64,000 bases of DNA from Bacteroidota bacterium (GTDB lineage: Bacteria; Bacteroidota; Ignavibacteria; Kryptoniales; JAKASW01): contig JAMCQL010000035.1 in the NCBI GenBank assembly GCA_023381615.1, positions 5,979-69,978 on the forward strand, read 5' to 3'. The translations under genes and the position numbers were made by a program. Position 1 is the stretch's first letter, and each line of letters begins with the position of its first letter. The notes under the pieces were generated by a model. The model was not told the origin of the DNA. It did no database searches and was given only the letters and a program-made list of their open reading frames with translations. Positions 4,362 through 64,000 of the stretch are shown here, piece by piece.

Positions 4362-5738
4362 TTATACCTGATTCCGGTAGCCCGGCTTCAACTGGCTGAC
4401 TATGGCTGTGGCTGTGCAGCGAACATCTTCATCGTAATCTTCTGAGAGTTTTTCGAGCTGCTGAATAAAAAGTTGGGGTCCGATTCTCGCCGCTAAGTCG
4501 AGCGCGAAAATCTTGACCGGAGATTCGGGATCGTCAAGCGCTGTCTTGACTAACGCTGCGGCGCAATGCGATCCAATATTACTGCAGGCGTTAAGTACGG
4601 TGACTCTTGCGTCTACATCTAATTGGAGAAAATTCTTCGAAATGAATACCGCTGCTTCTTCCATTACCTTTGAATCGGCAAACCCAGGGCTGTTCTCGGT
4701 GCAATTCTGGATCATCGAAAGAGTCATCTTAACCAGAGCCGCCGCATTTGCTCTTTCGTTATCGAATTTGAGAATGAGTGGAAGCACTTCCTCGGCTCGG
4801 TCTTTCAAGATTGAGAATATTGCATTATCAACCGACTCCGTTTTGCCTACATGTGCGATGAGCGCTTCGAGCACATTTTCGTTGATGAAATATCTCAGAC
4901 CCCTGACAGCGGCGCGGACATATGATGTGTCTGCGTCGTCGAGCATCTCAAGTAAATGTATTTTTAGATCGCTCGGGAGACTGCCGGGGTAATCGGTGGA
5001 TTCTAAAAGTTTTACAACGGAGTGAAGCAAAACCGGTTTTGCAAGATCGGAAATCGAGTTGAGTTTTTGCAGTATAATATTCAGCAGCCCGCTGTCTTTC
5101 CGTGATGCGAGCGCCTCGGCGGCGGCAAGCTGTACGACGGGGTCATCGTCGGCGAGAGCTTTCTCCAAAAATTGCAGCTCGACCTTCTGCGGAAACTTCG
5201 CGACCGCGTTGACCACGTTCGGTTTGGCATATTCAACCTTATCGTAGAGCGCCAGGATATGGTCAGTATATTTTTCAGCGTGGAGAGCCCCGAGCGCGTC
5301 AATCGCCGCGCAGACGACATTTGGATCGGAATCGGAAAGATGCGCCGCTATTCTTTTCAGAGCCGCAGGAGTCGCGGTGAGTTGGGCTAAAATATCGATT
5401 GCAAATTTTCGCACGTCTTTGTCAGCCGAATCGACGTAGGGAAGAAGGGCGTTAACAGCAGCGCCGCCCATCCGCACGAGCGCGTCTCCCGCAAGGTTCC
5501 GCACCGTGATGTTCCTGCTTAAAATGTGAACGGCGGTGAGAGAGGCGGCTTTGTCATTCGAACAAAATACGAGCAAACGGGAAGCCGCATCGCGCACCCC
5601 CCCGTCCATGTCTGTCAGCAAGTAAGCCGCTGCTTCCAACACGCGGTCGTCGCAGGAAAAATCAAAAAGAATTTCCAGAGCGTTTCTTCGCTCGGATGCG
5701 TCGGTGGTATGAAGCTGTTCTAAAAGTTGTTCGATCAT
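4362..5738 (-). CDS. HEAT/armadillo-repeat protein
   Basis: Repeated ~30-aa units of the type D..VR..A...L (DGGVRDAASRLL, DKDVRKFAIDIL, DPNVVCAAIDAL, DDPVVQLAAAEAL, DEDVRCTATAIV). Confidence 0.7.
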   Translation of the reverse strand: MIEQLLEQLHTTDASERRNALEILFDFSCDDRVLEAAAYLLTDMDGGVRDAASRLLVFCSNDKAASLTAVHILSRNITVRNLAGDALVRMGGAAVNALLPYVDSADKDVRKFAIDILAQLTATPAALKRIAAHLSDSDPNVVCAAIDALGALHAEKYTDHILALYDKVEYAKPNVVNAVAKFPQKVELQFLEKALADDDPVVQLAAAEALASRKDSGLLNIILQKLNSISDLAKPVLLHSVVKLLESTDYPGSLPSDLKIHLLEMLDDADTSYVRAAVRGLRYFINENVLEALIAHVGKTESVDNAIFSILKDRAEEVLPLILKFDNERANAAALVKMTLSMIQNCTENSPGFADSKVMEEAAVFISKNFLQLDVDARVTVLNACSNIGSHCAAALVKTALDDPESPVKIFALDLAARIGPQLFIQQLEKLSEDYDEDVRCTATAIVSQLKPGYRNQV

Positions 5739-7132: not shown

Positions 7133-8908
7133 TCAGTTTGCTTTACTGGATAATTCGCTGAGACCTGCGTTGCGTTTCGGTTGACGCGCAAAGCTTAAGG
7201 AAGCTCCTATTGTCGCTTGTTTCTCGTTTTCTTTTTTTTCGATTTTGAAATTCAAGATCAGGTTTTGAAGATTTTCGGTAAGTCTGTTGAGATCGTCTGC
7301 CGCGCGCGCTATTTGTGAAATTCCGTTTGCCGACTCGGTCGAGACGGTAGAAATGGACTCTACATTTTTTGAAATCTGCTCGCTCGTTGATGATTGCTCC
7401 TCGCTTGCGGCGGCGATTTGCATCATCATGTCAATTGCCGCCTGTGTGTTCTGGACGATATTTTTCAGCGACTCGCCGGCTTTATCTGCCAATCTGATTC
7501 CTTCCGCGACTTCATCGTTCCCGCGTTTCATAGAACTGACTGCTGCGGTGGCTTCTGCCTGCACATTTTTTATCATGGACGCGATTTGCTTTGTTGCCTG
7601 TGTGGTTCTCTCGGCAAGTTTTCTCACTTCGTCGGCGACAACGGCGAAACCTCTTCCTTCTTCGCCGGCGCGCGCTGCCTCGATTGCGGCGTTCAGCGCA
7701 AGAAGATTCGTCTGGTCGGCAATGTCATCTATTACGGAGATTATTTCCCCGATTTCTTGCGTGGAAGATCCGAGGCGCTCGACGGTCGAAGCTGATTTTT
7801 GAACGACTTCGGCAATCTCACGTATTTTCTTAACGGTCTTTTCGACAACTATGCCGCCTTCTTTCGCAACCTGACCGTTCTTCTTGGCGACATCCGCGGT
7901 ATTTGTAGCGTTCTTTGAATTCTCGATGACAGTTCTCGTCATTTCCTCGACTGCCGCCGCGACTTCGCCGGCTTGTGCCGACTGCTCCTGCGCACCCGCC
8001 GCCAATTCTTCCGTCGAACTGCTTATCTGCGCGGAAGCGCTCGCCACTGAACTCGAAGTTTCGGAAACCCGCTGAAGTGTCAATCTCAGGTCGTCGATCA
8101 TTTTTTGGACTTCCTTGCCAAGGTCATAAAGCTGGCTGTCCTCGCCGATTTCGACGGATGTCGTGAGGTCTCCGGATGCAACGGCAAGAACGGCTTTCGC
8201 GATCGGCGCAACTTGCTGCTCCAAGTATTCTCTTTGCTTCTTTATGTTTCTTCGCAGGTCTATGAAAGTAAGGAATGCCCCGACAATTTCTCCATTTGCA
8301 TTTCTAATCGGTCCGGAACTGGCGATAACAGGGATTGTTTCGTCCTTATGATTCTTGATGTTTACTTCATAAGCATCCATCGGTTTACCGGCAAGGGCGC
8401 TTCGGGTAGCGGTCTCTGACCCAAACAATTCCTTGACCGTCATCTTCCCGACAACTTCGTCAGATGAAACAGCCATCAACTCGCAAGCGGATTTGTTAAC
8501 GAATGTGAGGATAGTGTTCTTGTCAGCCATGAAGAACGGGCTCTCGATGCTGAGCTGAATACTTTTCAGCATTGCCATCTCGTCTTGAATTCGACGTACC
8601 ATACTATTTAATGATTTAGCAAGGATGCCGATCTCATTTTTGGAAGAATCATCAATTTGAAGTCCTAAACTGCTTGCAGTAATCGAGTCTGCTTTATTCG
8701 CAAGGTTAATAATTGGCTTGCTTATGCTTTTCGCAACTATGACTCCAAGTCCGACGAAAATGATGACTGAGATGGCCATTAACGTATAGTTCTGGCTGAA
8801 ACCTGCCGCCAGCGAGACTGCCGCGGAAAGCACGGAGAGTAAGACAAGTTTGAGGAGTATCCCCGTGTTTGATATGGTGCGCATTGAATTATCCTTTTGT
8901 TTGGTCAT
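7133..8908 (-). CDS. Methyl-accepting chemotaxis protein (TM-HAMP-PAS-like-signalling domain)
   Basis: Hairpin-tip motif [41 protein letters not shown]. The start overlaps the upstream MCP stop. Confidence 0.9.
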
Positions 8909-11100
8909 TACTGTATCACTTCGTGTTGATGTGCTTTTCCTTGCGCAAGGTTAATCCTGCTGTTGCCGTTTTGATCGACTTTGAATTTATCGGCCAGCTT
9001 TTGCAGGCTTTCGGTGAGCCTGTTTAGGTCATCGGCGGCTCTCGCAATCTGTGATATTCCGTTTGCCGACTCGGACGATACGGTGGAAATAGCTTCGACG
9101 TTTTTCGAAATTTGTTCGCTTGTCGAAGATTGTTCTTCGCTCGCGGCGGCAATCTGGTTTATCATATCTACGATGCCTTGCGCGTTGCTTACAATATTTT
9201 TTAAAGAGTCGCCGGCTTGATCGGCAAGGCTGATTCCTTCGGTGACTTCCTGGTTCCCGCGCCGCATCGCTTCGACAGCTTCTCCTGTGCTGTTCTGAAT
9301 ATTTCTTATCATCGCGGAAATTTGTTTTGTTGCCTGCGACGTACGTTCAGCTAATTTTCTGACTTCATCGGCAACCACTGCGAAGCCTCTTCCTTCTTCG
9401 CCCGCCCGCGCCGCCTCGATAGCTGCGTTCAACGCGAGCAGGTTTGTCTGGTCGGCGATGTCATCGATAACGGAAACGATTTCTCCAATTTGTCCGCTGA
9501 GTTCGCCGAGTTGGTTGACGGTGTCCGATGATTTTCTTACCACACTTGCGATCTCTTTTATCTTTTGCACTGTGTTTTGAACCACTTCGCCGCCGTGATG
9601 CGCGACTTTGCCGTTGTCCTTTGCGGCATCCACCGCTTTGCTTGCGCTTCTGGCATTTTCAATGACTGTTCTCGTCATCTGTTCAACGGCTGTGGCAACT
9701 TCTCCAGCTTGAGCAGATTGTTCCTGGGCGCCGGCGGCGAGTTCCTCGGTTGAACTGCTGATCTGTGACGAAGCGCTCGCGGTGGACTGAACTGCGCGAA
9801 TTACTTGCCCGATTATCTCGCGGATATTCAATACAACCTTGTTGAATCCCTGATAAAGTTTGCCAATCTCGTCGTTCTTCTTCGCTTCCAAACTGACGGT
9901 GAGGTCGCCCTCAGCAAACTTGTTCATCTCTTTAAGAAGCGCATCGACGCTCTCGGATAGATATTTCCGGTCTTTCTCGATCCTGTCGGAGAAGGCTTTC
10001 ATTTCCGTAACATCGGTCAACACCTCGACTCCGCGAATTATATTTCCGTTGACGTCGGAAACGGAGCCTGCCTGATAAATAACGGGAATCTCGTTGCCTT
10101 TTGGCTTTGCGGTCGATTCGCCGCTTATCATTTTCCGTTCGTTCCACGCCTTGGAAACAGGGCATTCTGCGGTTTGACAGAGCGGAAGGTTGAAAACCTC
10201 ATAACATTTTTTCTTTTCGACAATGTTTTCGTACTTCTCGCCGGCAAGCTTAACAGCGGCTGTGTTGGCAAATTGAATCGTGAACTGCCGGTCCACTGCA
10301 TAGACGGGACTCCCGACCTCGTTCAAGTAAGCCGCAAGCTTTGCGATATCCGCAGACATGGCATTGAAAGACTCCGCAAGTATTCCGAACTCATTCTTTG
10401 ATTTGATTTCTGCGCGAGCGCCCCATTTGCCGGCTGATATTTTGCGAGTCGCCTCCGTTAAGACTTTAAGCGGAACCGTCAACGAACGATACCAGATGAA
10501 TCCCGTGATGATTATGGCAATTATCAAAAGGCTTGAGACAAGCCATAATTCCTGTTCGATCTGGTTTGCATCGTCGACTTCTTGCGATTTCTCCTGAAAA
10601 ATTTTCTGACGCTCCGAATCGATGAGCAACGCAATTTTTGTCTGGAGGTTTGAGTAGTGAGTTTTCAGATTTTCTAACGAAGATAGCTCCTGTTTTGCTT
10701 TTCTCGTTCCGATTGAAGATTGAGCCTGCGCTTGACTTTGTTGAATGCTGCTCCAGATATCCGAAATTTCCTGGAGCGAATTTGTATTATCAGCGCTATT
10801 TTGTCCGGTGACAGACTGAAGCTTTTGAGTGAATTCGCTTGATGCGCTTTGAAAGTCTGAATTGCCGGCAGAACCATATAGAGCATCTTTTGATGCCGAC
10901 TCAACTTTCAATGAAAGCGCGTAGAGGTCGTTGTAAGTTTGGAGTGTGCTTACAACCTTGCCCAAGTGTCTGCTCGATTTAGCAGAGTACTCGTGGAGTT
11001 TACCGCTGACGAAGAAAGTTGCGAGCGCCATAACTAGTGCCGCTGCGCCGAAGGAGAGAATGATTCTTGTTGACATCCGAAAGTTATTGATCCATCGCAT
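8908..11100 (-). CDS. Methyl-accepting chemotaxis protein (periplasmic helical sensor-HAMP-PAS-like-signalling domain)
   Basis: Same MCP tip motif. The signalling domain is near-identical to that of 7133-8908. Confidence 0.9.
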
Positions 11101-11161
11101 GGTTTGCCCGCCTCATTATTGTGATTCTCAGGTTTGAGTGTGAATTGTGAGAGTCAATTGA

Positions 11162-11653
11162 TCAAGCCTTTGATTCCGCCTCGATTTCAGAAAGGTGTTC
11201 TTGTTCATCCGAAGAAAGAACTTTGTCGAGATCAAGCAGGATCAACAGCCTGTCCTGAAGTTTCGCAACGCCGGTGATGTAATTTGCGTTAACGCTTGTC
11301 GTGAGATCGGGCGGCGGCTCAATGATACTCTTCTCGACGCGGATGACCTCTTTCACTTTGTCCACGAGGAAGCCGACAACTTTATCTGTCAACTCGACAA
11401 CGATTATTCTAGTTTCATTGTCGCGTTCTTTCTTGCTGATGCCGAATCGCTTTCTCAGATCGATTACCGGAACGATTCTTCCCCGCAAGTTGATTACACC
11501 TTCAACGAACTCCGGCGACTTGGGAACGCGGGTGATTTCGACGGTGCGAATAATTTCCTGAACTTTTAAAATGTCGACTCCAAATTCCTCGTTCTCGACC
11601 ACGAAACTGACGAGTTGGTAGATCGTCTCGTTTGATTGGCTGCTGGTATTCAT
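11162..11653 (-). CDS. cheW: Chemotaxis coupling protein CheW
   Basis: 163 aa; FGVDILKVQEII, GVINLRGRIVPVIDLRKRFG. Confidence 0.9.
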   Translation of the reverse strand: MNTSSQSNETIYQLVSFVVENEEFGVDILKVQEIIRTVEITRVPKSPEFVEGVINLRGRIVPVIDLRKRFGISKKERDNETRIIVVELTDKVVGFLVDKVKEVIRVEKSIIEPPPDLTTSVNANYITGVAKLQDRLLILLDLDKVLSSDEQEHLSEIEAESKA

Positions 11654-11656
11654 TTT

Positions 11657-13558
11657 TTATCTCCCGTTAGTTCCATTTCTATGCGAGTTATGAAGGGGAA
11701 CAATTTTTCCGTTTTCACGGACGCCGTACGAGCCTTTTTGATCCACGCTCGAATTTAGCTGGAAGCGTTCGATCAACACCCGCAGGTGTTCTGTCAACTT
11801 ATTAAGATTCTCGGCAGTGTGCGCAAGGTCGGTAGTTGCTCCGGAAACCTGGCCGGCGACGGAAGAAATACTTTCCACGTTGTGCGATATCTGTTCGCTG
11901 GCGGAAGACTGTTCCTGACTTGCCGCCGCGATTTGATTTATCATTCCGACAACGCCGTTGACAGAAGAAATAATTTCTGAAAGAGCGTCGGCGGCTTTGT
12001 CTGCTAATTTCATTCCGTTCTCGGCTTCGGTGTTTCCTTCGGTCATCGCGAGCACGACCTGTGTTGTCTCTTGCTGAATGCGTTTGATCATTCCGGCAAT
12101 TTCTTTTGTCGCGGAAGTTGTACGCTCTGCGAGTTTGCGGACTTCGTCGGCAACAACCGCGAATCCTCGTCCTTGTTCGCCGGCTCTCGCCGCTTCGATT
12201 GCCGCATTGAGCGCGAGAAGGTTTGTCTGGTCCGCAATGTCGTCTATGACTTGGATGATCTCTCCGATTTGCGCGCTTGACTTCCCGAGAGTATCGACAA
12301 TTTCCGCTGATTTCTTCACAAGCTGCGCGATTTTCGTCATTCCACCGAGAGTGTCCTGGAATACCTTTTCGCCGACATTTGCAAGATCGGAGGCTTTTTT
12401 CGCCATCTCGGCGGCTTCGTTTGCATTCTTGGACGACTCGATTATTGTCGTCGACATCTGCTCGACTGCTGTCGCTACCTCGCGAGTCTGGTTTGCCTGT
12501 TCTCCTGCGCCCGAAGACATTTCTTCGGCTACGGACGAAATTTGTGTTGAAGCTTCCGCAAGTGAGTTGCCCGCAGTGTGCACTTCGCCGATGAGCGAAT
12601 TCAAGTCGCGGATCATCTGGTTAATTTTGTGCATCAGCGCCGCGACCTCGTCTTCCTTTTCAACTGTCAACTCTTTTGTGAGGTCGCCTGCGGTTACAGC
12701 TTCGACTACCGCGGATATTTTTCCGAATTGCGTTTGAAGATATTCCTGCTGTTCCTCAGACTCATGCTGCATTTTTTCGGCGAGTTTTCTTGCTTGCTCT
12801 GCTTGCTGGGTTTTCAAGTTTATTTCATCGAGCGACTTCTTGTTGTTCTCGACCATTATGTTGAATGCGGCGGCGAGTTCGCCTATCTCGTCGCTTTGGT
12901 TCAGCTCGACTCTTGTTTCGAAGTCGCCGGTTGCTACTTTCTGAGCCGATTTCTTCAGAAGCTCGACCGGCTTTACGATAGCTTTTCCTATGAGAAGCAG
13001 TGCGAGCCATCCGAACACACCAAAGATTGCGAGAACGACGATCGAAAAAATCAGGCTGTTCGACCTTTCCGCTTTAAGCGGCTGGGATGAGATCGCGACA
13101 GAAACGTAACCGAGCGGCTGGTGAGTGGTTTGATTTGCAATTCTTAATGCGGCAACGATAACCGGCGCTCCATCTTTTGTGTCGGCTGATTGCACCGATT
13201 TAGTGAGTGATGAAAAATTAGGTTGTGTCCAGTTTATGGAATTAAAATTCACCTGCGCGAGCAATTTTCCGTTCTGGTCATAGAATGCACCGGCGACAGC
13301 ATCTCCGGCTCCAACTACGTTTTTGAGTCCGTCGGTAAGTCCGCCCGTATCGCCCATCATCAATCCGTATTGCGATTGTGCCCCCATTGTCTGAGCGAGC
13401 AATGTTGCTCTATCGTTGAATTCGCGTTCTGTAATGCTCAACGAGTACCTTGAATAAATAAAAACGAGAGCCCACGCGAAAAGCATTATTGCAGTTAAGA
13501 GGACTGAAAACTTTTTGCGAAGTTTCATATTTGCGATTCGTTGATTTGTGTTCATCAC
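11657..13558 (-). CDS. Methyl-accepting chemotaxis protein
   Basis: N-terminal TM, periplasmic domain, second TM, HAMP, and MCP tip [41 protein letters not shown]. Confidence 0.9.
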
Positions 13559-13564
13559 TCTGCC

Positions 13565-14131
13565 TCAGTTTGTTGCAAGAAATTGTGTATTCGGGATATA
13601 TTTTTCGGGCACTTTTATTCCAAGCGCGTTAAGTGTCTTTTGGTTGACGATCAATTTTACATCGCTTCCTTCGTTGAGAAGAGTTGCGCATGCTCCAGCG
13701 GATACCCAATCTGTGTTCGGCGCAAAGACCGCGATGCCGTTTACTGTCGCGTTCTTAATGAGATAATCCCTTCCGAGTGAACTCCCGACCATGTTGTCGT
13801 TCTGCAATATCCAGAGAATTTGGATATGATAATTGTCGGTAAGGTCCCTGAACTTTTGCGCTATGTCCTTTAATTCTTCGACATCAGCAATTACAACTTT
13901 GACACCGACTGCTGCGGCAGCGCGTTGGATCTTCGGCATGAGATCCGCGGTGTTGACCGTTGATTGGTTCCACATTATTCCGACAATCTGTGTTTTCGGA
14001 AAAAGTTGCTTCATCATATAAAGTTGTTGAAGCGGTGTTGCATTAGATTCTAATGCCTCCGGTGTGCCAAATAGGGCAAGCACCAGAACGGGAATTGCGA
14101 TCATTAGACCGAATCTTTTAGACGAAAGCAT
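13565..14131 (-). CDS. Signal-anchored periplasmic protein resembling half of an ABC-type substrate-binding (ABC_sub_bind-like) fold
   Basis: N-terminal hydrophobic segment, then alternating beta/alpha pattern (IVGIMWN, VKVVIADV, IQILWIL, GIAVFAP). Family assignment is from memory and unverified. Confidence 0.4.
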   Translation of the reverse strand: MLSSKRFGLMIAIPVLVLALFGTPEALESNATPLQQLYMMKQLFPKTQIVGIMWNQSTVNTADLMPKIQRAAAAVGVKVVIADVEELKDIAQKFRDLTDNYHIQILWILQNDNMVGSSLGRDYLIKNATVNGIAVFAPNTDWVSAGACATLLNEGSDVKLIVNQKTLNALGIKVPEKYIPNTQFLATN

Positions 14132-14504
14132 TTTGTCTCACCTCTGTTTTTGTGTTCGGATTACTTATTAATCTTTTTAACGTGCCGAAAGTGAACGGTT
14201 TGTCCAGCGCCGTGAAAGCCTCTGTTTCCAAAAGCATCTGCAAAGTCAAAGGCTCTATTTTCGTTACAGCCACAATGCTGGTAAGTCTTTTCTTTGACTT
14301 TAGAACTTTGCCAAGGAGCAGAAATGTTGCCGGATTGTTGGAAGAGATTATCAGTGAATCTACATTCATCATCGAGATTATCTCTGCTGCCTCAAGTGAA
14401 TCTGTTGAAGTAAGTACTGCGCAACAATCTTGCGATAAATAGTTTGCCCAAGCTGCGGAGAGCTCGGTGTCTGTTTCGTGGATAAGTATAGTTTTCATGT
14501 CCAT
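14118..14504 (-). CDS. Receiver-like protein lacking the phospho-acceptor Asp (pseudo-receiver)
   Basis: Has a receiver fold pattern and keeps the T (IVAVT) and K (LDKPF). Beta1 reads ILIHETD, and the beta3 acceptor position reads DSLIISS (Ser instead of Asp). Confidence 0.5.
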   Translation of the reverse strand: MDMKTILIHETDTELSAAWANYLSQDCCAVLTSTDSLEAAEIISMMNVDSLIISSNNPATFLLLGKVLKSKKRLTSIVAVTKIEPLTLQMLLETEAFTALDKPFTFGTLKRLISNPNTKTEVRQNAFV

Positions 14505-14886
14505 TCACATTTATAAATGACAACTGGTGTGCCGCAGCAATTCTTGTGAATTCGAGGTATTTTACGGCATTTCACCGAGACAAGGGAGGTTCAATGACGA
14601 ATATTAGCCACGAGTTTGAACAATAGTCGCCATGGACTTCAACGGAAATTATTCCCTGCGGTGGCTGAGTCTCACGTGACTGGGTCGGTTCACCTCGAGA
14701 GTCGATTGTGTTTGTCGTGCCCGGTTGTCTTCGTTCGATGACAACGAAAGAAATTTTGGCGAATAGTAATCAACGCTGGAGAATATTGAGCAGCACATAA
14801 GACGTGAACGCTTAATTCAGTTTGAATTTCCGTCTTGCCGTCGGCACAAACGTTGAACAGAATAAAGAGGACAAAGGAGCGTTGGA

Positions 14887-15024
14887 ATGAAAAAGTTTTT
14901 GATACTGCTTGCACTAATTGCTGCCACGTCTGCTGTGGTGGCTTTAATAGACGGTGAACAAGATGCCGATAGTACTATTGAAGAGGCAAATGAGGATTTA
15001 GTCATCGATTATCTGGGAGTTTAG
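14887..15024 (+). CDS. Unannotated 45-aa microprotein (signal/TM helix + acidic tail) immediately upstream of flgB
   Basis: ATG at 14887 lies 7 nt after AAGGAG (14874-14879). Product is MKKFLILLALIAATSAVVALIDGEQDADSTIEEANEDLVIDYLGV. Stop TAG 15022-15024 lies 2 nt before the flgB ATG. It is below the ORF-track length cutoff. Confidence 0.4.
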   Translation: MKKFLILLALIAATSAVVALIDGEQDADSTIEEANEDLVIDYLGV

Positions 15025-15026
15025 TC

Positions 15027-15416
15027 ATGAAGATAGACTTATTCGACAGGAGCAGGATTCCGCTTCTTGAAAAGGAGCTTGATGCATTCGCAGTTCGGAA
15101 CAAGGCAATCGCAAATAACATTGCCAACATCGGCACGCCGAATTACAAGCGCCTCGATGTCGGTTTTCAAAAACAGCTTTCCGATGCGATCGAGACTGCG
15201 AAGAACAGCGTTGATCTAAGCGAGAAAGTGGACCAGATCGAGCCCGAAATCGAAATCGACCGCAGCAGTCTTCTGGCGAGCGGTGCAAATAATGTTGACA
15301 TAGACCAAGAAATGGCTGAGCTTGCGAAAAATCAGCTTCGATTCAAGTTGGCTGCTCGGCTGATGACCGATACTTTAAATCAAATTGACAAAAGCATAAC
15401 GAGTGGTGGACAATGA
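15027..15416 (+). CDS. flgB: Flagellar basal-body rod protein FlgB
   Basis: NNIANIGTPNYKR motif; first gene of the fla operon. Confidence 0.9.
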   Translation: MKIDLFDRSRIPLLEKELDAFAVRNKAIANNIANIGTPNYKRLDVGFQKQLSDAIETAKNSVDLSEKVDQIEPEIEIDRSSLLASGANNVDIDQEMAELAKNQLRFKLAARLMTDTLNQIDKSITSGGQ

Positions 15417-55756: not shown

Positions 55757-57022
55757 ATGAAAATTCTTGTTTTAAATTCCGGAAGCTCATCCGTTAAATA
55801 TCAATTTGTCGACGCCAAGGATAGTGTCGTCCTGGCGAAAGGAATTGTAGACCGTGTTGGAATGAACGACTCGGTTGTAACTCACGAGCGATACGATGGC
55901 GATAAGGTGAAAATCAGCGCAGAGGTTCTTGACCACCAAACTGCGATCGAATATGTCCTCGCGGTGCTTCTGAGCAAGAACCATGGAGTCATTCAGGACA
56001 AATCGCAGATCGAGGCGGTCGGTCATAGGGTGGTACACGGCGGTGAGAGCTTTTCAGAGAGCGTTCTCATCGACGAGAAAGTCATGGATGAAATTCGTGA
56101 GGACATCGAGTTGGCGCCTTTGCACAATCCTCACAACCTTCGCGGCATTCAGGCTGTTCTGAAACATTTGCCGGGCACTCCGCAAGTCGCAGTCTTCGAT
56201 ACCGCATTTCATCAGAAGATGCCGCCTCGTGCCTTCCTTTACGGAATTCCGTATCTCCTTTACAGGCGATACAAAATTCGCCGCTACGGCTTTCACGGGG
56301 CTTCGCATTATTACGTTTCGCAGAGAGCGGCCGAATTGCTCGGGAAGCCGATTGAGAAACTGAAAATCATCACCGCACATCTTGGCAACGGCTGCAGCAT
56401 GACCGCCGTTGATGGAGGAGTTTCGATAGACACGTCGATGGGATTTACGCCGCTTGAAGGTTTGCTTATGGGAACACGCAGCGGCGATCTCGATCCGTCG
56501 ATCATATTACACATCGTGGGCCGCGAAGGACTGTCTCTTGCCGAAGCGAACACGCTTCTCAACAAACACAGCGGGTTGCTGGGAATATCAGGACTCACAA
56601 GCGACATGCGCGAGATTATTTCCGAGAAAAAATCCGGCAACAAACAGGCTGATCTTGCCTTTCAGGTTTTTACATACCGCATAAAGAAATACATCGGCTC
56701 GTATGCGGCGGCGATGGGCGGTTTGGACGCCCTCGTCTTCACAGGCGGGATCGGGGAGAATAGTCCTGATGTCCGCGCCGAAAGCTGCAAGGGACTTGAC
56801 TTCCTTGGAATTAAAATTGACGACGATAAAAACAATTTGACCGTGAGTGAAAAAGTCATAAGCGCAGAGTCTTCAAAAGTGAAAGTTCTCGCTTTGCCAA
56901 CAAATGAAGAGTTGGTGATAGCGCTTGACACGATGAGAATAGTGGAATCTGCTCAACGAGTCGAGTCATCGACCAAACGTTCTTCGGAGGTGGAGCATGA
57001 AAAAGCTAATTTTAATAGCTAG
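55757..57022 (+). CDS. ackA: Acetate kinase
   Basis: MKILVLNSGSSSVKYQ, GHRVVHGG, RYGFHGASH, FTGGIGEN. Confidence 0.95.
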   Translation: MKILVLNSGSSSVKYQFVDAKDSVVLAKGIVDRVGMNDSVVTHERYDGDKVKISAEVLDHQTAIEYVLAVLLSKNHGVIQDKSQIEAVGHRVVHGGESFSESVLIDEKVMDEIREDIELAPLHNPHNLRGIQAVLKHLPGTPQVAVFDTAFHQKMPPRAFLYGIPYLLYRRYKIRRYGFHGASHYYVSQRAAELLGKPIEKLKIITAHLGNGCSMTAVDGGVSIDTSMGFTPLEGLLMGTRSGDLDPSIILHIVGREGLSLAEANTLLNKHSGLLGISGLTSDMREIISEKKSGNKQADLAFQVFTYRIKKYIGSYAAAMGGLDALVFTGGIGENSPDVRAESCKGLDFLGIKIDDDKNNLTVSEKVISAESSKVKVLALPTNEELVIALDTMRIVESAQRVESSTKRSSEVEHEKANFNS

Positions 57023-58801: not shown

Positions 58802-59485
58802 ATGAGAATGAATCAATCAGACGACCACAGCCTTCAAAGACCAGATGATCTTAAGGTGAGTGAATGGCGCAAGACGGCCGCCTTGAAAAGACGCGCATCT
58901 TCACGCAGGGCGATATTGAAAGCCGCACGCGAAATATTCACCGAGGCGGACTACGAGTCGGTTACCGTGGACGAGATCGCCCGTAAAGCTAAGGTAGGCC
59001 CTGCTACCATCTACAATCATTTTGGAACAAAGGCCGCTTTGATAGCCCACCTGTTTGAAGAACCTATGAGAGAATTGGAGAAGCATGTTCTAAGCGATAT
59101 AGACGCAGACCTTACTTTGGATGAGGCTGTTCATCGACACTTCCTCCGATTATCCGGGACGATGTCACCGAACAGGAAGTTGGTAATTGGATTGTGGAAG
59201 GCGATAAATGAGACTGGTCTCTCAACGAAACAATCTAACACCGCGGAAGACCCACGAAATATAGTTCCACTTCCTCGCCCTTTGACGACACTCCTGCAGT
59301 CGTTCACGATGAAGCATGACTTGAAGCTAAACCTTGACCTTGCTGGTGCAGCGGCAATGGTGACGAACGCTTTCCTCATCCGCATTTTGCGCAACGACGA
59401 CCCACAGGCAGCGGCTAAAGAAACGGCAGATCTCCTCCTGTACGGAGTTTGCGGCAGGGCTACAAAAGTTGTACATGTCCCGTGA
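58802..59485 (+). CDS. TetR-family transcriptional regulator
   Basis: N-terminal HTH RRAILKAAREIFTEADYESVTVDEIARKAKVGPATIYNHFGTKAALI. Confidence 0.85.
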   Translation: MRMNQSDDHSLQRPDDLKVSEWRKTAALKRRASSRRAILKAAREIFTEADYESVTVDEIARKAKVGPATIYNHFGTKAALIAHLFEEPMRELEKHVLSDIDADLTLDEAVHRHFLRLSGTMSPNRKLVIGLWKAINETGLSTKQSNTAEDPRNIVPLPRPLTTLLQSFTMKHDLKLNLDLAGAAAMVTNAFLIRILRNDDPQAAAKETADLLLYGVCGRATKVVHVP

Positions 59486-59520
59486 CGGGACACCACGACA
59501 GATGAAAATGTGGCGTGAGG

Positions 59521-59588
59521 CAGGTGACCGTCACTTCTATGTCAGATTGTCAGTGGATTGCAATGTTTACGCAAGTGACGGTCACCTG
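59521..59588. repeat. Perfect 16-bp inverted repeat (CAGGTGACCGTCACTT / AAGTGACGGTCACCTG) with a 36-nt spacer; each arm contains the palindrome GTGACnGTCAC
   Basis: Read directly: 59521-59536 is the exact reverse complement of 59573-59588. A third GTGACGG copy overlaps the TetR stop codon (59481-59487). Confidence 0.8.
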
Positions 59589-59624
59589 AACGTTTAGGTA
59601 TCTCCGGGAGGCGTGTATCGTCTC

Positions 59625-59876
59625 TCGGAGGTACAAAAAGGAATGTCGGAGTGTCCTTCTTGACCCGCCGAGATTCAAGCGGGTACCTCGGAGAGTCCTC
59701 TTTGATTCCCGGAGGTTCAGAAAGGTATCAAAAAGAGTCTTCTTTGATACTCAGAGATTCAAAGAGGTATGTCGGAGAGTCTCCTTTGACTCTTGGATAC
59801 TCAAAGAGGTATCTCAGAGTGTCCTCTTTGACTCTCGAAGAGTCAACGAGGGGGGTCGAGGGGCTTAGATTCGCTC
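59625..59876. repeat. Six tandem 42-bp units, each an imperfect hairpin (TCAAAGAGG...CCTCTTTGA), with TC(G/A)GAG recurring every 21 bp
   Basis: Units start at 59625, 59667, 59709, 59751, 59793 and 59835. Consensus is TCGGAG-aTTCAAAGAGGTATg-TCGGAG-aGTCCTCTTTGActc. The last unit is degenerate. Confidence 0.85.
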
Positions 59877-60284
59877 AAAAAGGGCATATAGTGATTTTGG
59901 TGAGATTTACACGGTTTTTCGGTCCTCGCGCTCGGCTTGCTAAGCCGCAGGTTGTCCTGGCAAGGTCGGGATCCTTCGAAGCGTCAAACATATCCCAGCT
60001 TGTGGCGAGGTTGAACAAGATGGGTTGGGTTTTTCCCGGGGGCAGGATGCGACGCGGTTGCACTTGAGAAGTGAAGAAATAACTTTCGGAGAAAAATGGG
60101 CGGCGTCCGGAAAGGAGAAAATGAAGTTATGTCGTATGATATTTCATTTCGGGAGGATGAACACCGTGATGCATGAAGCAGACCGCGAAACTGTTGACAT
60201 TATCCTGAGACAAGTTTAAATTCCTGCAAGATGACAAAGGGCGGAATGAGATCATCCGTAGGATCCTATGGATCGGAGGGAGAC

Positions 60285-60872
60285 ATGAGTGAGAGGTCAG
60301 GAAAGCTGCTCGATGTTCTACAACAGGAATTGAGATTGAGAAATTACAGTCCGAAGACTATCAAGGCATACAAGAGTTGCGTGCGGACTTTTATCCGATG
60401 GATAGCGCCCCGGCATCCTCGTGATCTTGGGGATTACGAAATAAGGGACGTGTTTACGGAAATGCTCGACTCCTATCAACGGTCTCCTGCCGGACTCAAC
60501 CAATTGATCAATGCACTTCGTTTTCTGTATGTTGAACTATATCAAAGGCCAATGAGATTAGGGACATTTCAACGACCGAGGGCTGAGAAGAAACTCCCTG
60601 TGATACTAAGTGAAGAAGAAGTGATCCGTTTACTGGAAGTAATAAAAAACGTCAAACATAAAACAATCCTTATGCTGATCTACTCGGGCGGTTTGCGAGT
60701 GGGTGAGGCTGTTCGCATCAAGATCGCAGATATTGACAGCGACAGAATGCTCATTCACATTCATGAAGGGAAAGGAAAGAAGGATCGATATACCCTTATA
60801 ACTGGCTTGAAGGAACTCCGTAAAGGAGGTAGTGAAAGGGAAGTGTTTAAAAGAAGTGGAGGTGGAGGATGA
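60285..60872 (+). pseudogene. C-terminally truncated IntI-like (integron-integrase-type) tyrosine recombinase
   Basis: N-terminal SAM-like domain LRLRNYSPKTIKAYKSCVRTFIRW, first catalytic Arg in YSGGLRVGEA and beta-hairpin Lys in GKGKKDRYTL. After that the frame degenerates and stops. The H-x-x-R, His/Trp and Tyr catalytic residues are absent from all frames downstream. Confidence 0.6.
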
Positions 60873-60915
60873 GAGAGGTTCTTGAAAGCTTAGCGGAGAT
60901 CCACTCGACCACGCC

Positions 60916-61055
60916 ACATAACAGATGGAACAAAGACGCTCAATTATTGAATATGTGGAATTCGCTTCATGGCGTTTGGCAATATAGAAGGAGAAGACTT
61001 AGAGGTAAGTTCCATGATGCCAAACGCCTCGACTTTGTTCCATCATACGTTATGC
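60916..61055 (+). other. attC-like recombination site 1
   Basis: R'' ACATAAC (60916-60922) and R' GTTATGC (61049-61055). Inner arms AGATGGAACAAAG / CTTTGTTCCATCAT. Internal stem GGCGTTTGGC / GCCAAACGCC. Conserved core TCGCTTCATGGCG. Confidence 0.65.
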
Positions 61056-61129
61056 GAAAGCTGGGCGTGAGGTCTGACTGTTTATTGTTCACCTTACGTT
61101 GCTGTCGATAAGGAGAAAGGGCAATTGAA

Positions 61130-61717
61130 ATGAGCACAAATCCAACATCCGCAGAGTCAATTTCAAGGAGGCAAGGGACAAAGTCTCTCAACATAGCAAG
61201 TCCCCACCCAATACCTTCAAAGCTGTTTTCAAACTGTTATAGTCTAGTCCAAGTGACTCACGCGAAGTTCGGCCTTCTGGCACTTGACTCAAGGCTCGCA
61301 ACCAAAGAGAGTTTGGTGGCAATTGCCCTAATGGAAAGAACTAGAGAGGCCATGGTTAACGCTGGCGCTGAGTATAAGCTCAGGATTATACTTGTATTTG
61401 CTGATATTGCTGTTATCGTCACTGCTTTTGTTTTCAGTTGGTGGATAGTGTTGCTGCTCCCCATCTTGCTCGTGACACAAAGAGGGACTAAGGTCAATGA
61501 ACTCAATCATAGATTCTACGCTTCTGCGTCGCTCCTATCTCTAGAAGTGCTCGCCAATGATTTTGCTGGTTGGGGTACTGCCTATCCTGAAGAACGAGCT
61601 CGAGCAGTTGCAATTCTCGGTGGTGAGCCTATCCCCCCAACGACTTGGCTAGACCTGTATTTAGCACGTCGGGACCAAGTGCCACCCTCCGAACAGAAGA
61701 AGAGCTTTGGTCCATAG
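61130..61717 (+). CDS. Cassette A ORF1: hypothetical protein with a central hydrophobic hairpin
   Basis: An AAGGAG is upstream. The TM stretch is LRIILVFADIAVIVTAFVFSWWIVLLLPILLV. I recognise no family. Its 3' end overlaps the next reading frame at a C6 tract. Confidence 0.5.
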   Translation: MSTNPTSAESISRRQGTKSLNIASPHPIPSKLFSNCYSLVQVTHAKFGLLALDSRLATKESLVAIALMERTREAMVNAGAEYKLRIILVFADIAVIVTAFVFSWWIVLLLPILLVTQRGTKVNELNHRFYASASLLSLEVLANDFAGWGTAYPEERARAVAILGGEPIPPTTWLDLYLARRDQVPPSEQKKSFGP

Positions 61718-61752
61718 ACGATTCTCAACCCTACAATGCCTGGTGTGACGAC

Positions 61753-62352
61753 ATGGACATTCACGACTATATTTTGGCTACCATTCCAGCTGAAATCGAC
61801 GATCAAGATAATTTCATTACCATAGCAAATTATGAAGGAATGCTGGCGGCTAAAGACAAGATTGCGATTGCCCAGATGATTTACCATCGCTTTCATGGAC
61901 GTTACGTAAAGCCATTTTTGTTTGAGAATGAAGAGTACAGGAAACGTTATAAGAGCGGTTTTGCGATGATGGCATCCGCTTGTTTCCTCATAGAGTCGTT
62001 AGAATCCTTCTATCACGGTTGGGAACACACACGAAATCGCGGGGAAGAAGCTTTTGAGAAGTTCTTCAATAGAGAATTCGCTTTCAAAGGCGTTCCCCCC
62101 AAGGACTTCTATAAAAATATTCGTTGTGGTATTTTACATCAGGCGGAGACAACAGGCGGGTTCAGAATCCTAAGGAAGGGTGTTCTCTTCGACCCAGAGA
62201 ACAGGATAGTCAATGCTGAAAAATTCCTGGAAGCACTTGAGGAGTCGCTGAGGGCATATAGGCAGAAGTTGTTGGAGTCTGAATGGGACGATAAGATTTG
62301 GGACAATCTGAGGGTAAAGATGCGATATATAATAGAGCATTGTCGTGGATAG
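61753..62352 (+). CDS. Cassette A ORF2: hypothetical soluble protein with an R-x4-H motif (possible HEPN-like)
   Basis: The open frame runs from 61627 (TTG at 61645, first ATG at 61753). The predicted helical protein carries NIRCGILHQAE at aa 122-132 counted from the ATG. Confidence 0.5.
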   Translation: MDIHDYILATIPAEIDDQDNFITIANYEGMLAAKDKIAIAQMIYHRFHGRYVKPFLFENEEYRKRYKSGFAMMASACFLIESLESFYHGWEHTRNRGEEAFEKFFNREFAFKGVPPKDFYKNIRCGILHQAETTGGFRILRKGVLFDPENRIVNAEKFLEALEESLRAYRQKLLESEWDDKIWDNLRVKMRYIIEHCRG

Positions 62353-62369
62353 TGTTACGCCCAGCCAGC

Positions 62370-62489
62370 GCATAACACGCCGGACAAAGACGCTCGTCAT
62401 TTGTATATATCGAAATCGCTTCATGGCGCGCTCAAACAGTACCCCAGCAAAGGATGCGCGCCACGACTTTGTCCGGCGGGACGTTATGC
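62370..62489 (+). other. attC-like recombination site 2
   Basis: R'' GCATAAC (62370-62376) and R' GTTATGC (62483-62489). Inner arms CGCCGGACAAAG / CTTTGTCCGGCG with extra unpaired bases on the right arm. Internal stem TGGCGCGC / GCGCGCCA. Core TCGCTTCATGGCG. Confidence 0.7.
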
Positions 62490-62516
62490 GAAATGTGCTA
62501 CTAAGGAGATTAGCGA

Positions 62517-63077
62517 ATGGCCAACTACGGTGAAGAATTAGGATATTGGTACCTGAGGCTTAATGGATTCTTTCCGATCACAAACTTCGTTTTTCATTCA
62601 CTAAGCAGTGAAACCCGCAAAGCTCGTTATAACGCAGACGCTGACTTATTAGCGATTCGACCGCCTAATGTTTCTGAGGTATTAATGGAGGAAACACTGA
62701 AATGGGACGACAAAATAATATCCGACCATGACCAGTCTAAGTTTGTGTTTGTTTACTGCGAAGTAAAAACTGGAGAATACGATGCATCTAAGTTGTTTGC
62801 AGAAGAAAGGATCCAGTACGCCAAGAAAAGATTCGGGCTATCTGCAGATTATAGTAGCGTCGAGCGCGTTTTCAAGACGATCCTGATCGCAAATGAAGAG
62901 AAGCCCAACAACTTGAATCGATTTAAGTTTATATCTGTGGACCATATCATTGAATTTATTCGAAGTAGATTCCAAGATTATGACGAAGTAAAGTATCCAT
63001 CAAGAATGTTTTTCGATTCGTCATTAATACAGTTCTTAATTCATGAAGCAAGGAAAAAGCGTCGGAGCCGTGATTGA
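62517..63077 (+). CDS. Cassette B ORF1: PD-(D/E)xK nuclease-fold protein (YraN/restriction-endonuclease-like core)
   Basis: AAGGAG lies 8 nt upstream. The ordered motifs are GEELGYWYLRLNGF, DADLLAI and VFVYCEVKTG (E ... D ... E-x-K). Confidence 0.55.
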   Translation: MANYGEELGYWYLRLNGFFPITNFVFHSLSSETRKARYNADADLLAIRPPNVSEVLMEETLKWDDKIISDHDQSKFVFVYCEVKTGEYDASKLFAEERIQYAKKRFGLSADYSSVERVFKTILIANEEKPNNLNRFKFISVDHIIEFIRSRFQDYDEVKYPSRMFFDSSLIQFLIHEARKKRRSRD

Positions 63078-63125
63078 TGATGGACACATAATGCAATGAC
63101 TAACTCTGATTAAGGATGTTATAGC

Positions 63126-63713
63126 ATGTTTAGCTTGTTCAAAAGGAGAATCAAAATCGATGAGTTGGCGTCATATCTAATTGAACTTAATGTTTTCTCC
63201 AAAAAGCACGAAGAATTACTTCGTGCTTCACTTGGGGACGACACTCAACTTGATCGAAAACGTGTCTTAGAGGAAATGCAGTGGCTTAGTGCTTTCTCTG
63301 TTGATTTTTTTACGTGGTGGATACTCGGCGAGACGGATCGGACGAGGGCTGTACTCGACTCGTTTTACTCCAAACTGAAACCAGTAGTTTACGGAAGAGG
63401 CTGTAGTCCCACTCCAGACCGAACTTGGGTATTGGGGCACACGTGGTTGCCAACAAATGAGAAATTTGAAGCTCGGGCAGGGGTGGGAACAGACCCGTAC
63501 GAAAACCTAAAAGAGAGATTCGCCCTTTATACTGAAGCACTAAGAACAGGCAAACCTCATTCTCAAGAGATAAATCACTTTCAGGTAGGATTCACATTTG
63601 CAAAGCTGTGTGGGACGATTGATATACTGGCTGTCCAACTGGGTCAAAATCTTCTATTGACAAATCTCAAACAGCTTAAGTGGCTATTCAACACCTTCAA
63701 GATAGTACGTTAG
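63126..63713 (+). CDS. Cassette B ORF2: hypothetical 195-aa protein
   Basis: AAGGA lies 9 nt upstream. It starts 48 nt after ORF1 with no attC between them. I recognise no family. Confidence 0.5.
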   Translation: MFSLFKRRIKIDELASYLIELNVFSKKHEELLRASLGDDTQLDRKRVLEEMQWLSAFSVDFFTWWILGETDRTRAVLDSFYSKLKPVVYGRGCSPTPDRTWVLGHTWLPTNEKFEARAGVGTDPYENLKERFALYTEALRTGKPHSQEINHFQVGFTFAKLCGTIDILAVQLGQNLLLTNLKQLKWLFNTFKIVR

Positions 63714-63746
63714 GAAAGACTACTAGATCAATGTGTAGCACACTTC

Positions 63747-63862
63747 GCATAACAACGAGAACCATGACGCTCGATTATTCTATACTATCGATCTCGCTTC
63801 ATGCCGCGCACATAGGAGGCTGCAAGGAGCGCGCCACGACTTTGTTCCATCATACGTTAGCC
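63747..63862 (+). other. attC-like recombination site 3 (arms poorly complementary)
   Basis: R'' GCATAAC (63747-63753) and R' GTTAGCC (63856-63862). Core TCGCTTCATGCCG. The right arm GACTTTGTTCCATCATACGTTA is identical to that of site 1, but the left arm AACGAGAACCATG does not pair with it. Confidence 0.5.
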
Positions 63863-63907
63863 GCAAGCACGCAACCACGATATTCTAAACGTTGAAGGAG
63901 TAAAATT

Positions 63908-64000
63908 ATGCAGACCATTTCTATTATCAATTACAAGGGTGGAGTAGGCAAGACAACGATAAGCGCGAACCTTGCTGCCGAACTTGCCTTTCGTGGTAAG
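63908..64000 (+). CDS. Cassette C: ParA/MinD-type ATPase, N-terminal fragment (runs off the window)
   Basis: AAGGAG lies 7 nt upstream. MQTISIINYKGGVGKTTISANLAAELAFRGK contains the deviant Walker A KGGVGKT. Confidence 0.7.
   Translation, partial: MQTISIINYKGGVGKTTISANLAAELAFRGK

Follow-up and report, generated by a model that had tools for sequence, protein, structure and literature searches.

What kind of element occupies the right-hand end of this stretch of Bacteroidota DNA, and could it still be active? The stretch (64,000 nucleotides (nt) of contig JAMCQL010000035.1, called the window below; its features are given in window positions) carries from position 60285 onward a truncated tyrosine-recombinase gene, followed on the same strand by imperfect palindromes that alternate with open reading frames (ORFs). 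A preliminary description, made by inspection of the letters, called this a degenerate chromosomal integron, that is, an IntI-like remnant followed by gene cassettes punctuated by attC sites. The analysis reported here bears out the logic and the architecture of that proposal and not its family assignment, as the recombinase family is not IntI and lacks the I2 insertion, and the sites have a distinct architecture. We conclude, with a probability that we put at about 0.72, that the segment is the decayed remnant of a sedentary, integron-like chromosomal cassette array of an uncultured Bacteroidota/Kryptoniota lineage, the intact relatives of which use an I2-less recombinase. The remnant is probably immobile, and the window locus would then be an inactive fossil of an integron-like system.

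Sites and cassettes of the window

The features on which the argument rests are listed below. The bottom strand of a site is its (-) strand, the complement of the coding strand; R1 is a covariance model built from 42 copies of the site family; L120 is a public contig of the same organism (99.95% identity over the overlap) that adds 8.3 kb to the window, and features beyond position 64000 are given in window-equivalent positions.

60285..60872, + strand: truncated tyrosine-recombinase gene, 195 amino acids (aa); the SAM-like domain at the N-terminus and the beginning of the catalytic domain (Arg, Lys) are kept
60909..61062, + strand: attC-like site 1, TAAC 60919-60922, GTTA 61049-61052, plus a 10-nt outer extension on each side; R1 91.9 bits, E = 1e-23
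61050..62483, + strand: cassette A, 1434 bp, from the TTA of site 1 to the G of site 2; ORFs 61130-61717 and 61753-62352
62363..62496, + strand: attC-like site 2, TAAC 62373-62376, GTTA 62483-62486; R1 106.4 bits, E = 7e-28; the best-preserved copy
62484..63856, + strand: cassette B, 1373 bp; ORFs 62517-63077 (186 aa) and 63126-63713 (195 aa)
63740..63869, + strand: attC-like site 3, TAAC 63750-63753, GTTA 63856-63859; R1 86.8 bits; hybrid with non-complementary arms
63857..64000, + strand: start of cassette C; ParA/MinD-type ATPase ORF from 63908 that runs past the window end (PF13614, 6.5e-10 on 31 aa)
63908-65237 (L120 4264-5593): genes of the cassette between sites 3 and 4, a ParA-like ATPase of 307 aa and a 138-aa protein
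65252-65384 (on L120): site 4, core GTTG
65438-67065 (L120 5794-7421): genes of the cassette between sites 4 and 5, a complete type II restriction-modification pair
67163-67293 (on L120): site 5

The three window sites are related imperfect palindromes of the form TAAC...GTTA (110-134 bp) that lie where the preliminary description had placed them, each 3' of a + strand ORF and all downstream of the truncated recombinase gene; as it also reported, each is followed by a Shine-Dalgarno sequence and a new ATG at 27-75 nt. Their alignment has 72% column identity, in keeping with the homogeneity that had been likened to that of sedentary integrons. R1 finds all three and nothing else in the 64-kb window (E = 7e-28 to 3e-22; next best E = 1.2), so the generic genome-wide repeat that had been named as a refuting alternative is not what the window holds. 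The central block first noticed by eye is likewise real: TCGCTTCATGSCG is exact in all three sites (60962, 62416 and 63794) and absent elsewhere in the 64 kb. The window has no Rfam match at gathering thresholds, and the one terminator-like site of the region lies inside an ORF. Two details required correction: the sites reach ~10 nt further outward than first marked, and the outer 7-mers of site 1, given as exact reverse complements, agree at 6/7 positions (ACATAAC versus GTTATGC).

Are the arms of the sites complementary, as had been claimed? Those of sites 1 and 2 are, with DNA fold z-scores of -4.1 to -7.6 relative to shuffled sequences. Site 1 gives z = -6.3 for the + strand and -7.6 for the - strand, so that its bottom strand folds better, and site 2, rejoined with its own cassette's start, is predicted to fold at -35.6 kcal/mol on the bottom strand versus -32.8 kcal/mol on the top. 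The claim fails for site 3, which folds no better than shuffled sequences (z = +0.5 and -1.0). The left arm, AACGAGAACCATG, and the right arm, CTTTGTTCCATC, are not complementary to each other; the right arm is identical to that of site 1, so site 3 is a hybrid without a long stem, and it still scores 86.8 bits with R1 because the conserved blocks have been kept. The hybrid was probably made by homologous recombination between two sites.

The cassettes had been taken to hold a single ORF; in fact there are two in each, and this is true of all four complete cassettes of the window and L120. In cassette A they encode a membrane-like protein of 195 aa (61130-61717) and one of 199 aa (61753-62352). 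None of the four complete cassette ORFs of the window has a Pfam, NCBIfam or PADLOC family above its curated cut-off, and their sole match is a weak, below-cut-off one to VirB3 (in cassette A). An 80-aa ORF in the public gene call (60869-61111) spans site 1; it has no family match and is probably spurious. The suggestion that further sites would be found past position 64000 was borne out by L120, which carries two more (sites 4 and 5) and extends the remnant to a five-site array. The ParA-like ATPase and its 138-aa partner have only a weak match to a PADLOC candidate system, and the restriction-modification pair consists of an N6/N4 methyltransferase and a REase_II match (E = 1.8e-58). Past site 5, L120 continues with a 196-aa ORF, a short ORF and then core genes; no sixth site was found there, so the array appears to end before the right-hand copy of a direct repeat described below. 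A total of 22 contigs, from NCBI assemblies and ENA metagenome samples, encode the protein of 63126-63713, and the gene order is identical in 6/6 of those examined, which fits a fixed, sedentary remnant.

Site arrays in relatives, putative crossover and predicted structure

Does this site family occur in other genomes? Species-representative genomes were scanned for the pattern GACGCTC-N18-24-TCGCTTCATG, for which we estimate that about 500 chance matches are expected. The matches were mostly singletons in unrelated phyla; loci were therefore used only if confirmed by a profile of the three window sites, and raw pattern matches, mostly chance singletons, were dropped as family members. The profile found true copies in 15 of the pattern-scan loci, all of them metagenome-assembled genomes (MAGs) labelled Bacteroidetes or Candidatus Kryptoniota, and further copies lie on contigs that encode relatives of the recombinase. 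Besides the window's own sites, the family comprises ~90 additional copies that form same-strand arrays at 20 loci (for example seven copies in L036, six in L010, eight in the adjacent blocks L086+L102, six in L119, at least 12 in L126, seven in L129, five in L130 and two weak matches in L127). The sites are 107-151 nt long, and the 41 inter-site segments, or cassettes, are 545-2986 bp (median 847 bp). In 34/41 cassettes most of the ORFs are on the site's top strand, and in most single-ORF cassettes the ORF starts ~20-40 nt past one site and ends just before the next. Hybrid sites, whose two arms belong to different stem types and are unable to pair, make up about one in eight (~5-6/46; window 63740-63869, L073 5894-6045 and 5014-5163, L010 6771-6901, L083 2182-2314 and L102 4057-4210). 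They look like products of homologous recombination of neighbouring sites in the central block, an event that would delete the intervening cassettes and kill the site.

A few of the relatives' arrays hold genes on the opposite strand to the array: L130 has three toxin-antitoxin-type pairs (Fic/MazE, BrnA-type and HigA/Gp49; 9480-11727), and L129 has a BglII-type restriction-modification pair (10951-12464).

If these segments are or were cassettes, where would they be exchanged? The 10 nt that follow the GTTA of one site (its tail) pair with the 10 nt that precede the TAAC of the next (its left extension) at a mean of 7.06/10 positions (n = 32, many of them 9/10), versus 3.66/10 for a tail and the left extension of its own site and 3.74 (standard deviation 1.63) for random pairs. 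The two ends of each cassette thus pair with one another, which is expected of a crossover inside an ACG↓TTA / TAAC core. In the window array this pairing is 7/10 for sites 1 and 2, 9/10 for sites 2 and 3, where the tail is TGCGAAATGT and the one exception is tail position +7 (A·C on the top strand, G·T on the bottom), and 8/10 each for sites 3 to 4 and 4 to 5 on L120. The same core is indicated by one cassette (87% identity, 572 nt) that has another site upstream of it in L062 than in L086: when the two loci are aligned, close identity runs from about the shared ACGTTA onward, and upstream of it there is family-level similarity only, so the ORF does not travel with its upstream site. As the L062 site is truncated after TAAC+13, this comparison fixes the left boundary only. 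Although the L119 integrase is 85% identical to that of the window over the aligned stretch, the two loci have no cassette DNA in common. These observations place the putative crossover in the GTTA core, as in integron cassettes, with the bases 3' of G↓TT predicted to go with the next cassette. In a subset of sites, first and other ones (L126, L129, L130, L086 and L102), the left extension reads CACGAAC-NNN-TAAC, which pairs with the usual cassette start NNN-GTCATG only if one base is bulged; there are accordingly two forms of R-box extension.

The structure of the sites was predicted from an alignment of 42 copies in bottom-strand orientation. TAAC...GTTA is kept in 41-42/42 aligned copies, so the AAC/GTT triplets of attC are present, and the wider RYYYAAC is only loosely matched. 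Inside this R box lie a 12-bp stem and an 11-bp inner stem, in which 9/12 and 10/11 pairs, respectively, have undergone compensatory change. The paired cells amount to 85%, versus 38-47% when the partners are slid by 1-3 columns, and the observed covariation was reached by 0/500 shuffles. An initial fold, in which CG/CG pairs flanked an A·A mismatch, was replaced by the RNAalifold extension of the inner stem.

How do these sites compare with canonical attC sites? The latter have, between their R and L boxes, 5-6 unpaired nt as a spacer on either arm, and two to three single extrahelical bases on the L'' arm of the bottom strand (G16 and T23/24, six bp apart) (PMC5027507). The preliminary description had proposed, as a check on the fold, that two extrahelical bases and an unpaired central spacer be sought. 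No single extrahelical bases are seen, there being no single-base bulges in the 12-bp stem of the 42-copy alignment, and in their place a 4x1 bubble separates the R box from that stem, with four unpaired nt (GTNN) on the 5' arm of the bottom strand facing a single T. Nor does the alignment have a 5-6 nt unpaired spacer on both arms, since the next 12 positions are paired and covary. The extra bases on the right arm that had been read as a strand-choice signal are on the wrong arm for that, because three bases on the right arm of the top strand are on the 5' arm of the bottom strand, and canonical extrahelical bases occupy the opposite arm. What the family does have is a ~34-nt bulge on the 3' arm of the bottom strand between the two stems, from about position 21, which is the most conserved part of the site (the complement of TCGCTTCATG...GACGCTC). 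It lies on the arm that carries the distal extrahelical base of canonical sites, and about as far from the end as that base, and so has the same polarity in another form. A longer hairpin within this bulge was considered and is not supported past 3 pairs.

Which strand would be the folded one? There are 101 G·T wobbles on the bottom strand versus 23 on the top, and two of the wobbles are near-invariant, at position 7 of the R extension (23/25 cassettes) and at alignment columns 24-85 (41/42 copies). When 30 reconstituted sites were folded with DNA energy parameters, the bottom strand was the more stable one in 24, the mean difference being 3.0 kcal/mol (Wilcoxon p = 7e-5). The bias in wobbles and energy implies that, as in integrons (PMC5027507), it is the complement of the coding strand that folds and functions, and by this computational proxy the bottom strand is predicted to be the better-folding, recombinogenic one.

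The recombinase and its attI-like junction

The window gene is decayed. Its product matches PF13495 (3.9e-16) and PF00589 (1.5e-11, over profile positions 3-72 of 172), and its best curated NCBIfam model is TIGR02249, "integron integrase" (128.6 bits, model positions 1-166 of 315). The nearest relative of greater length is P0004 (85% identity); homology to it stops at ~60824, and a low-stringency tblastn search of 60700-61300 found no trace past that point of Box II (H-x-x-R, H), the catalytic Tyr or the C-terminal half. The gene at 60285-60872 is a pseudogene. Nor was an attI-like junction found in the window with up to 3 mismatches allowed. With Box II and the catalytic Tyr lost, attI gone and site 3 unfoldable, the five-site array is a fossil unless a paralogue acts in trans.

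The remnant ends before the region that is diagnostic of IntI, and the type of enzyme it came from must be read from relatives. Eight full-length ones were used, in L086, L038, L119 (P0004), L126 (P0062), L127 (P0039), L129 (P0048), L130 (P0074) and L131 (P0084); they are ~52-85% identical to the window fragment or, for L086 and L038, to P0002, which is itself 77% identical to the fragment. The co-orientation of recombinase and array noted in the window recurs in all eight. On the same strand, 3' of the recombinase stop codon, 8/8 have an attI-like junction of the form ...AGTTA|NNNGYCATG, 44-68 nt from the stop codon in the seven loci where this distance is reliable, and an array follows it in all 7/7 that have enough downstream DNA (L086+L102, L038, L119, L126, L129, L130 and L127). 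The tail of the junction pairs with the left extension of the first site at 9/10 positions in L038, 8/10 in L119 and 5-6/10 in L086, L126, L129 and L130. This junction appears to be an attI in all but name. In L127 two IS110-family transposases are inserted directly 3' of it (11470-15285). Two copies of a 12-14 bp palindrome lie between the recombinase stop and AGTTA in L126 (10868-10945), L129 (8930-8995) and L130 (8880-8950); they differ by locus (CGCCATATGGCG twice in L129, ACGACATATGTCGT / GACGACATAGTGTCGT in L126) and may be binding sites of the recombinase or a regulator, or a terminator.

Are these enzymes IntI? In the stretch that holds the IntI-specific I2 insertion, a helix or "additional domain" near patch III, P0002 has 19 residues versus 61 in VchIntIA (2A3V), and the same holds for every full-length relative. 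P0002 aligns end to end with the archaeal XerA (4A8E); it scores 131.7 bits against XerA in one piece and 143.6 bits against VchIntIA in two. TIGR02249, which has a cut-off of 265 bits, gives ten relatives (nine of them full length) 188-246 bits; the nine full-length ones reach 222-246 bits, the match being split in two with approximately model positions 180-233 left out. NF040815 (XerA type) gives the same nine 221-246 bits, above its cut-off of 220 bits, a match that assigns a sequence class only, the surrounding arrays speaking against a dif-type role. Among the best 150 relatives of P0062 in a search of 1.84 billion representative proteins (E <= 2e-66), each aligned in one query-length stretch, no insertion of I2 size was found. 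These scores and alignments place the clade at about equal distances from IntI and XerA, and not as a recent derivative of a known IntI. Identity to IntI1 is about 31-34% by tblastn, with an unverified IntI1 query sequence. Of the claim that an integron-integrase-like recombinase stands upstream, then, the fragment itself and its orientation are sound, and its assignment to canonical IntI is not, as its relatives are without I2 and score below the TIGR02249 cut-off. Membership in the "inverted integrase" IntI group of Treponema and Chlorobium, with which the arrangement had been compared, is unlikely in view of that low identity to IntI1.

Proposed mechanism, alternative explanations and surroundings

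An intact platform of this family would work as follows. It consists of a tyrosine recombinase of ~290 aa, the attI-like junction and then cassettes, each made of one or two tightly packed ORFs and a site of 107-151 nt. The bottom strand of each site would fold into a long imperfect hairpin composed of the R box (TAAC/GTTA plus ~10 bp contributed by the cassette's two ends), the 4x1-nt bubble, the 12-bp stem and the 11-bp stem, with the ~34-nt bulge (the complement of TCGCTTCATG...GACGCTC) projecting from its 3' arm. The recombinase would cut and exchange at the core (top strand G↓TTA), so that cassettes would be excised as circles and inserted at attI as IntI does, here without an I2 helix and without single extrahelical bases; the choice of strand would come from the conserved bottom-strand G·T wobbles and the side bulge. 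We infer from the features described above that the recombinase moves these cassettes, and likewise the exact bond cleaved, a single-stranded substrate and the role of the bulge.

How far can this be pressed? I2 is held to be necessary for processing single-stranded attC sites, as it docks the extrahelical bases and blocks a lethal second strand exchange; its gain is regarded as the step that enabled attC processing, and intermediates are said to be lacking (PMC7790495). An IntegronFinder survey found only 21 tyrosine recombinases without the intI_Cterm profile near attC sites; four of these took an intermediate place in the tree, with IntI on one side and Xer on the other, and none of the four had as many as three sites (PMC4889954). 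A classification of tyrosine recombinases calls the insertion "not fully conserved" in its "integron-like" subgroup and does not discuss arrays there (PMC8138268). In the part of the literature that we covered, no description of I2-less integron platforms or integrases was found. A bolder reading, which we offer tentatively and think somewhat more apt to be wrong than right, is that the recombinases beside these arrays make up a natural lineage of integron-type platforms that never had I2 or lost it long ago and that recombines folded bottom-strand sites, the extended R box, the G·T wobbles and the bulged side element taking the place of extrahelical bases; such a lineage could be the "missing intermediate" between Xer-type enzymes and IntI, or a second, independent solution to the recombination of cassettes as single strands.

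Several points weigh against our interpretation. The variation in the stems comes from perhaps 5-8 stem types common to related MAGs, so the compensatory changes represent few independent events and not 42. A hairpin in the side bulge is backed by 3 pairs, the next three positions being unpaired in 34, 27 and 42 of the 42 copies. The frequency of hybrid sites means that ordinary homologous recombination also reshapes the arrays. Given that I2 is held necessary (PMC7790495), an I2-less enzyme doing the same job is unexpected, and the authors of the IntegronFinder survey judged such proteins not to be IntI (PMC4889954). The recombinase family is very large (3666 representative clusters at E <= 1e-30), and arrays were checked in a small Bacteroidota subset of it. 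Finally, the window segment is bracketed by direct repeats, so the recombinase could have had a role in island integration:

59465..59587, strand not assigned: left copy of a direct repeat of ~123 bp, overlapping the last codons of a TetR gene (58802-59485)
68085-68197 (window-equivalent; L120 8441-8553): right copy, 91% identical to the left copy by blastn

The ~123-bp repeat contains a perfect 15-bp inverted repeat (AGGTGACCGTCACTT...AAGTGACGGTCACCT), and its copies bracket the whole segment of integrase remnant and array, ~8.6 kb. They may mark the ends of an island (attL/attR) or have arisen by duplication of an operator-like palindrome.

What else could the locus be? Among the alternatives, the one to which we give most room, though we consider it unlikely, is a Xer-like enzyme acting on duplex DNA by two-strand exchange as at dif or pdif, with the palindromy of the sites reflecting paired binding sites or cruciforms. 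The end-to-end alignment with XerA (4A8E, 131.7 bits), the NF040815 scores (221-246 versus 220), the lack of the helix said to block second-strand exchange (PMC7790495) and attI candidates that resemble duplex sites with palindromes nearby would all suit such an enzyme. It would not lead one to expect compensatory changes over 23 bp of inner stems far from the crossover, the 10-bp complementarity that joins the two ends of each cassette, or a 4:1 excess of G·T wobbles and an energy bias on one strand, and all sites have one orientation, which differs from the alternation known for pdif. We judge it distinctly improbable that the locus is what remains of a canonical integron, whose true IntI had I2 before truncation and whose sites were ordinary attC sites of the "inverted integrase" group. 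In favour of this, TIGR02249 is the NCBIfam model that fits the fragment best (128.6 bits, positions 1-166), the best solved structure for P0002 is VchIntIA (2A3V), the TAAC/GTTA cores match the AAC/GTT triplets of attC (PMC5027507), and the length of the sites, the layout of ORF then site and the co-orientation fit, complete canonical integrons being known in Chlorobi, Ignavibacteriae and Salinibacter (PMC9024848). The window copy, however, stops before the diagnostic region, and the closest full-length relatives P0002 (77%) and P0004 (85%), like all the others, lack the insertion and score 222-246 against a cut-off of 265; VchIntIA at 143.6 bits in two pieces is barely above XerA at 131.7 in one, and neither the 5-6 nt spacer on both arms nor the single extrahelical G and T are present.

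The direct repeats raise the further question of whether the recombinase is simply the integrase of an ~8.6-kb integrative island, with the array as its cargo and not its substrate. The repeats do bracket the segment at 91% identity, the left one overlaps the 3' end of the TetR gene, and the recombinase lies near that end, as in many islands. Yet the same enzyme family stands directly before an attI-like junction and an array in eight other loci, where no such direct repeat was seen, though no search for one was made. We give this explanation very little weight, noting that island and array roles are not mutually exclusive. Least credible of all, to the point of being nearly dismissible, is the idea that the sites are generic intergenic repeats (of the repetitive extragenic palindrome or miniature inverted-repeat transposable element kind), structured antisense-RNA elements or terminators without any link to the recombinase. 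They are intergenic imperfect palindromes with a conserved central block, as such repeats are, and G·U-type wobbles on one strand would also suit an RNA made from the bottom strand. None lies outside the array in the 64 kb, however, there is no Rfam match, and the one terminator-like site of the region is inside an ORF; in eight loci they start, in a single orientation, right behind a recombinase gene and junction, and the complementarity of cassette ends and the cassette swap at GTTA would be left without explanation.

We return to the interpretation as a decayed integron-like array and to its relation to known systems. Like integrons, the intact relatives have one tyrosine recombinase with an insertion site next to it and, behind these, an array of small cassettes, most of them apparently without a promoter and each ending in an imperfect palindrome of ~110-150 nt with a GTT/AAC crossover core and a favoured bottom strand. 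As in sedentary integrons the sites are homogeneous within the lineage and toxin-antitoxin (reversed, in L130) and restriction-modification (reversed, in L129) cassettes occur, and as in "inverted integrase" integrons the integrase is co-oriented with the array. Unlike in integrons, the recombinase is without I2, falls below the TIGR02249 cut-off and has about 31-34% identity to IntI1 (the unverified query noted above); in its sites, a 14-bp R box and a 4x1 bubble stand where integrons have a spacer of 5-6 nt on both arms, and instead of the single extrahelical G and T there are a conserved ~34-nt bulge on the same arm and a pair of conserved G·T wobbles.

XerC and XerD are the only other tyrosine recombinases known to act on both single- and double-stranded substrates (PMC5027507). 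With XerCD acting on the attP of CTX phage, and with archaeal XerA, the family shares a short, "simple" recombinase without I2 and, plausibly, a hairpin substrate that mimics a duplex core. Xer systems differ in using one chromosomal dif site, at which whole phages or islands are integrated, and in having no same-orientation cassette arrays by the recombinase gene. The pdif modules of Acinetobacter plasmids are likewise gene modules that are bounded by sites of Xer-type recombinases and found in varied contexts. The pdif sites themselves are 28-bp duplexes in alternating orientation that are served by host XerC/D encoded elsewhere, whereas the sites of this family are 107-151 nt long, structured, in one orientation and beside a dedicated recombinase. 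The window array, finally, resembles the attC clusters without an integron integrase that IntegronFinder calls CALIN, as no functional integrase lies next to it; should the attC model recognise the sites, the software would file both the window locus and its intact relatives as CALIN, although the latter have a recombinase and an attI-like junction, of a type that the software does not accept.

What would follow from this? Integron integrases are defined by I2, and that definition is challenged by an I2-less clade that fronts an attI-like junction in 8/8 loci; the earlier survey (PMC4889954) is challenged by arrays of up to at least 12 structured sites, with signatures of crossover and strand bias, that follow I2-less recombinases. 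If our interpretation is true, software that requires an IntI-specific profile would miss the platform, and cassettes of soil and sediment Bacteroidota, restriction-modification and toxin-antitoxin ones included, would be missed or filed as orphan attC clusters. The enzymes, if active, would offer an experimental handle on the evolution of cassette recombination and on what I2 is needed for.

The surroundings of the window locus include the following further features:

59622..59846, strand not assigned: tandem array upstream of the integrase remnant, 42-nt units, 5.4 copies, 69% matches (Tandem Repeats Finder)
60194..60222, + strand: sigma-70-like promoter match, TTGACA, 17 nt, TAAATT; 10/12 consensus positions
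55757-57022 in the window with L120 11945-12436, and L130 4030-7578 and L129 6722-7717: acetate kinase and other neighbouring genes

Genes for acetate kinase, phosphotransacetylase, an AIRS-domain protein and a coenzyme A-binding protein lie near the platform in the window, L130 and L129, which hints at a conserved chromosomal location of the array in the lineage. Promoter-like matches are no more numerous in the region than in shuffled sequences, so 60194-60222 is a consensus match only; similar TTGACA...TAAATT motifs lie 5' of the integrase in L086 and L119. Tandem arrays occur ~150-650 nt 5' of the recombinase start in five loci (the window, L131, L086, L119 and L126), and their unit sequences differ: 21 nt repeated 6.3 times in L131 (~7628-7760), 11 nt in L086 (~4408-4439) and L119 (388-440), and 7 nt in L126 (~9784-9830). 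In the public annotation the tandem array of the window is called as a 138-aa gene (59651-60067), which has no Pfam match.

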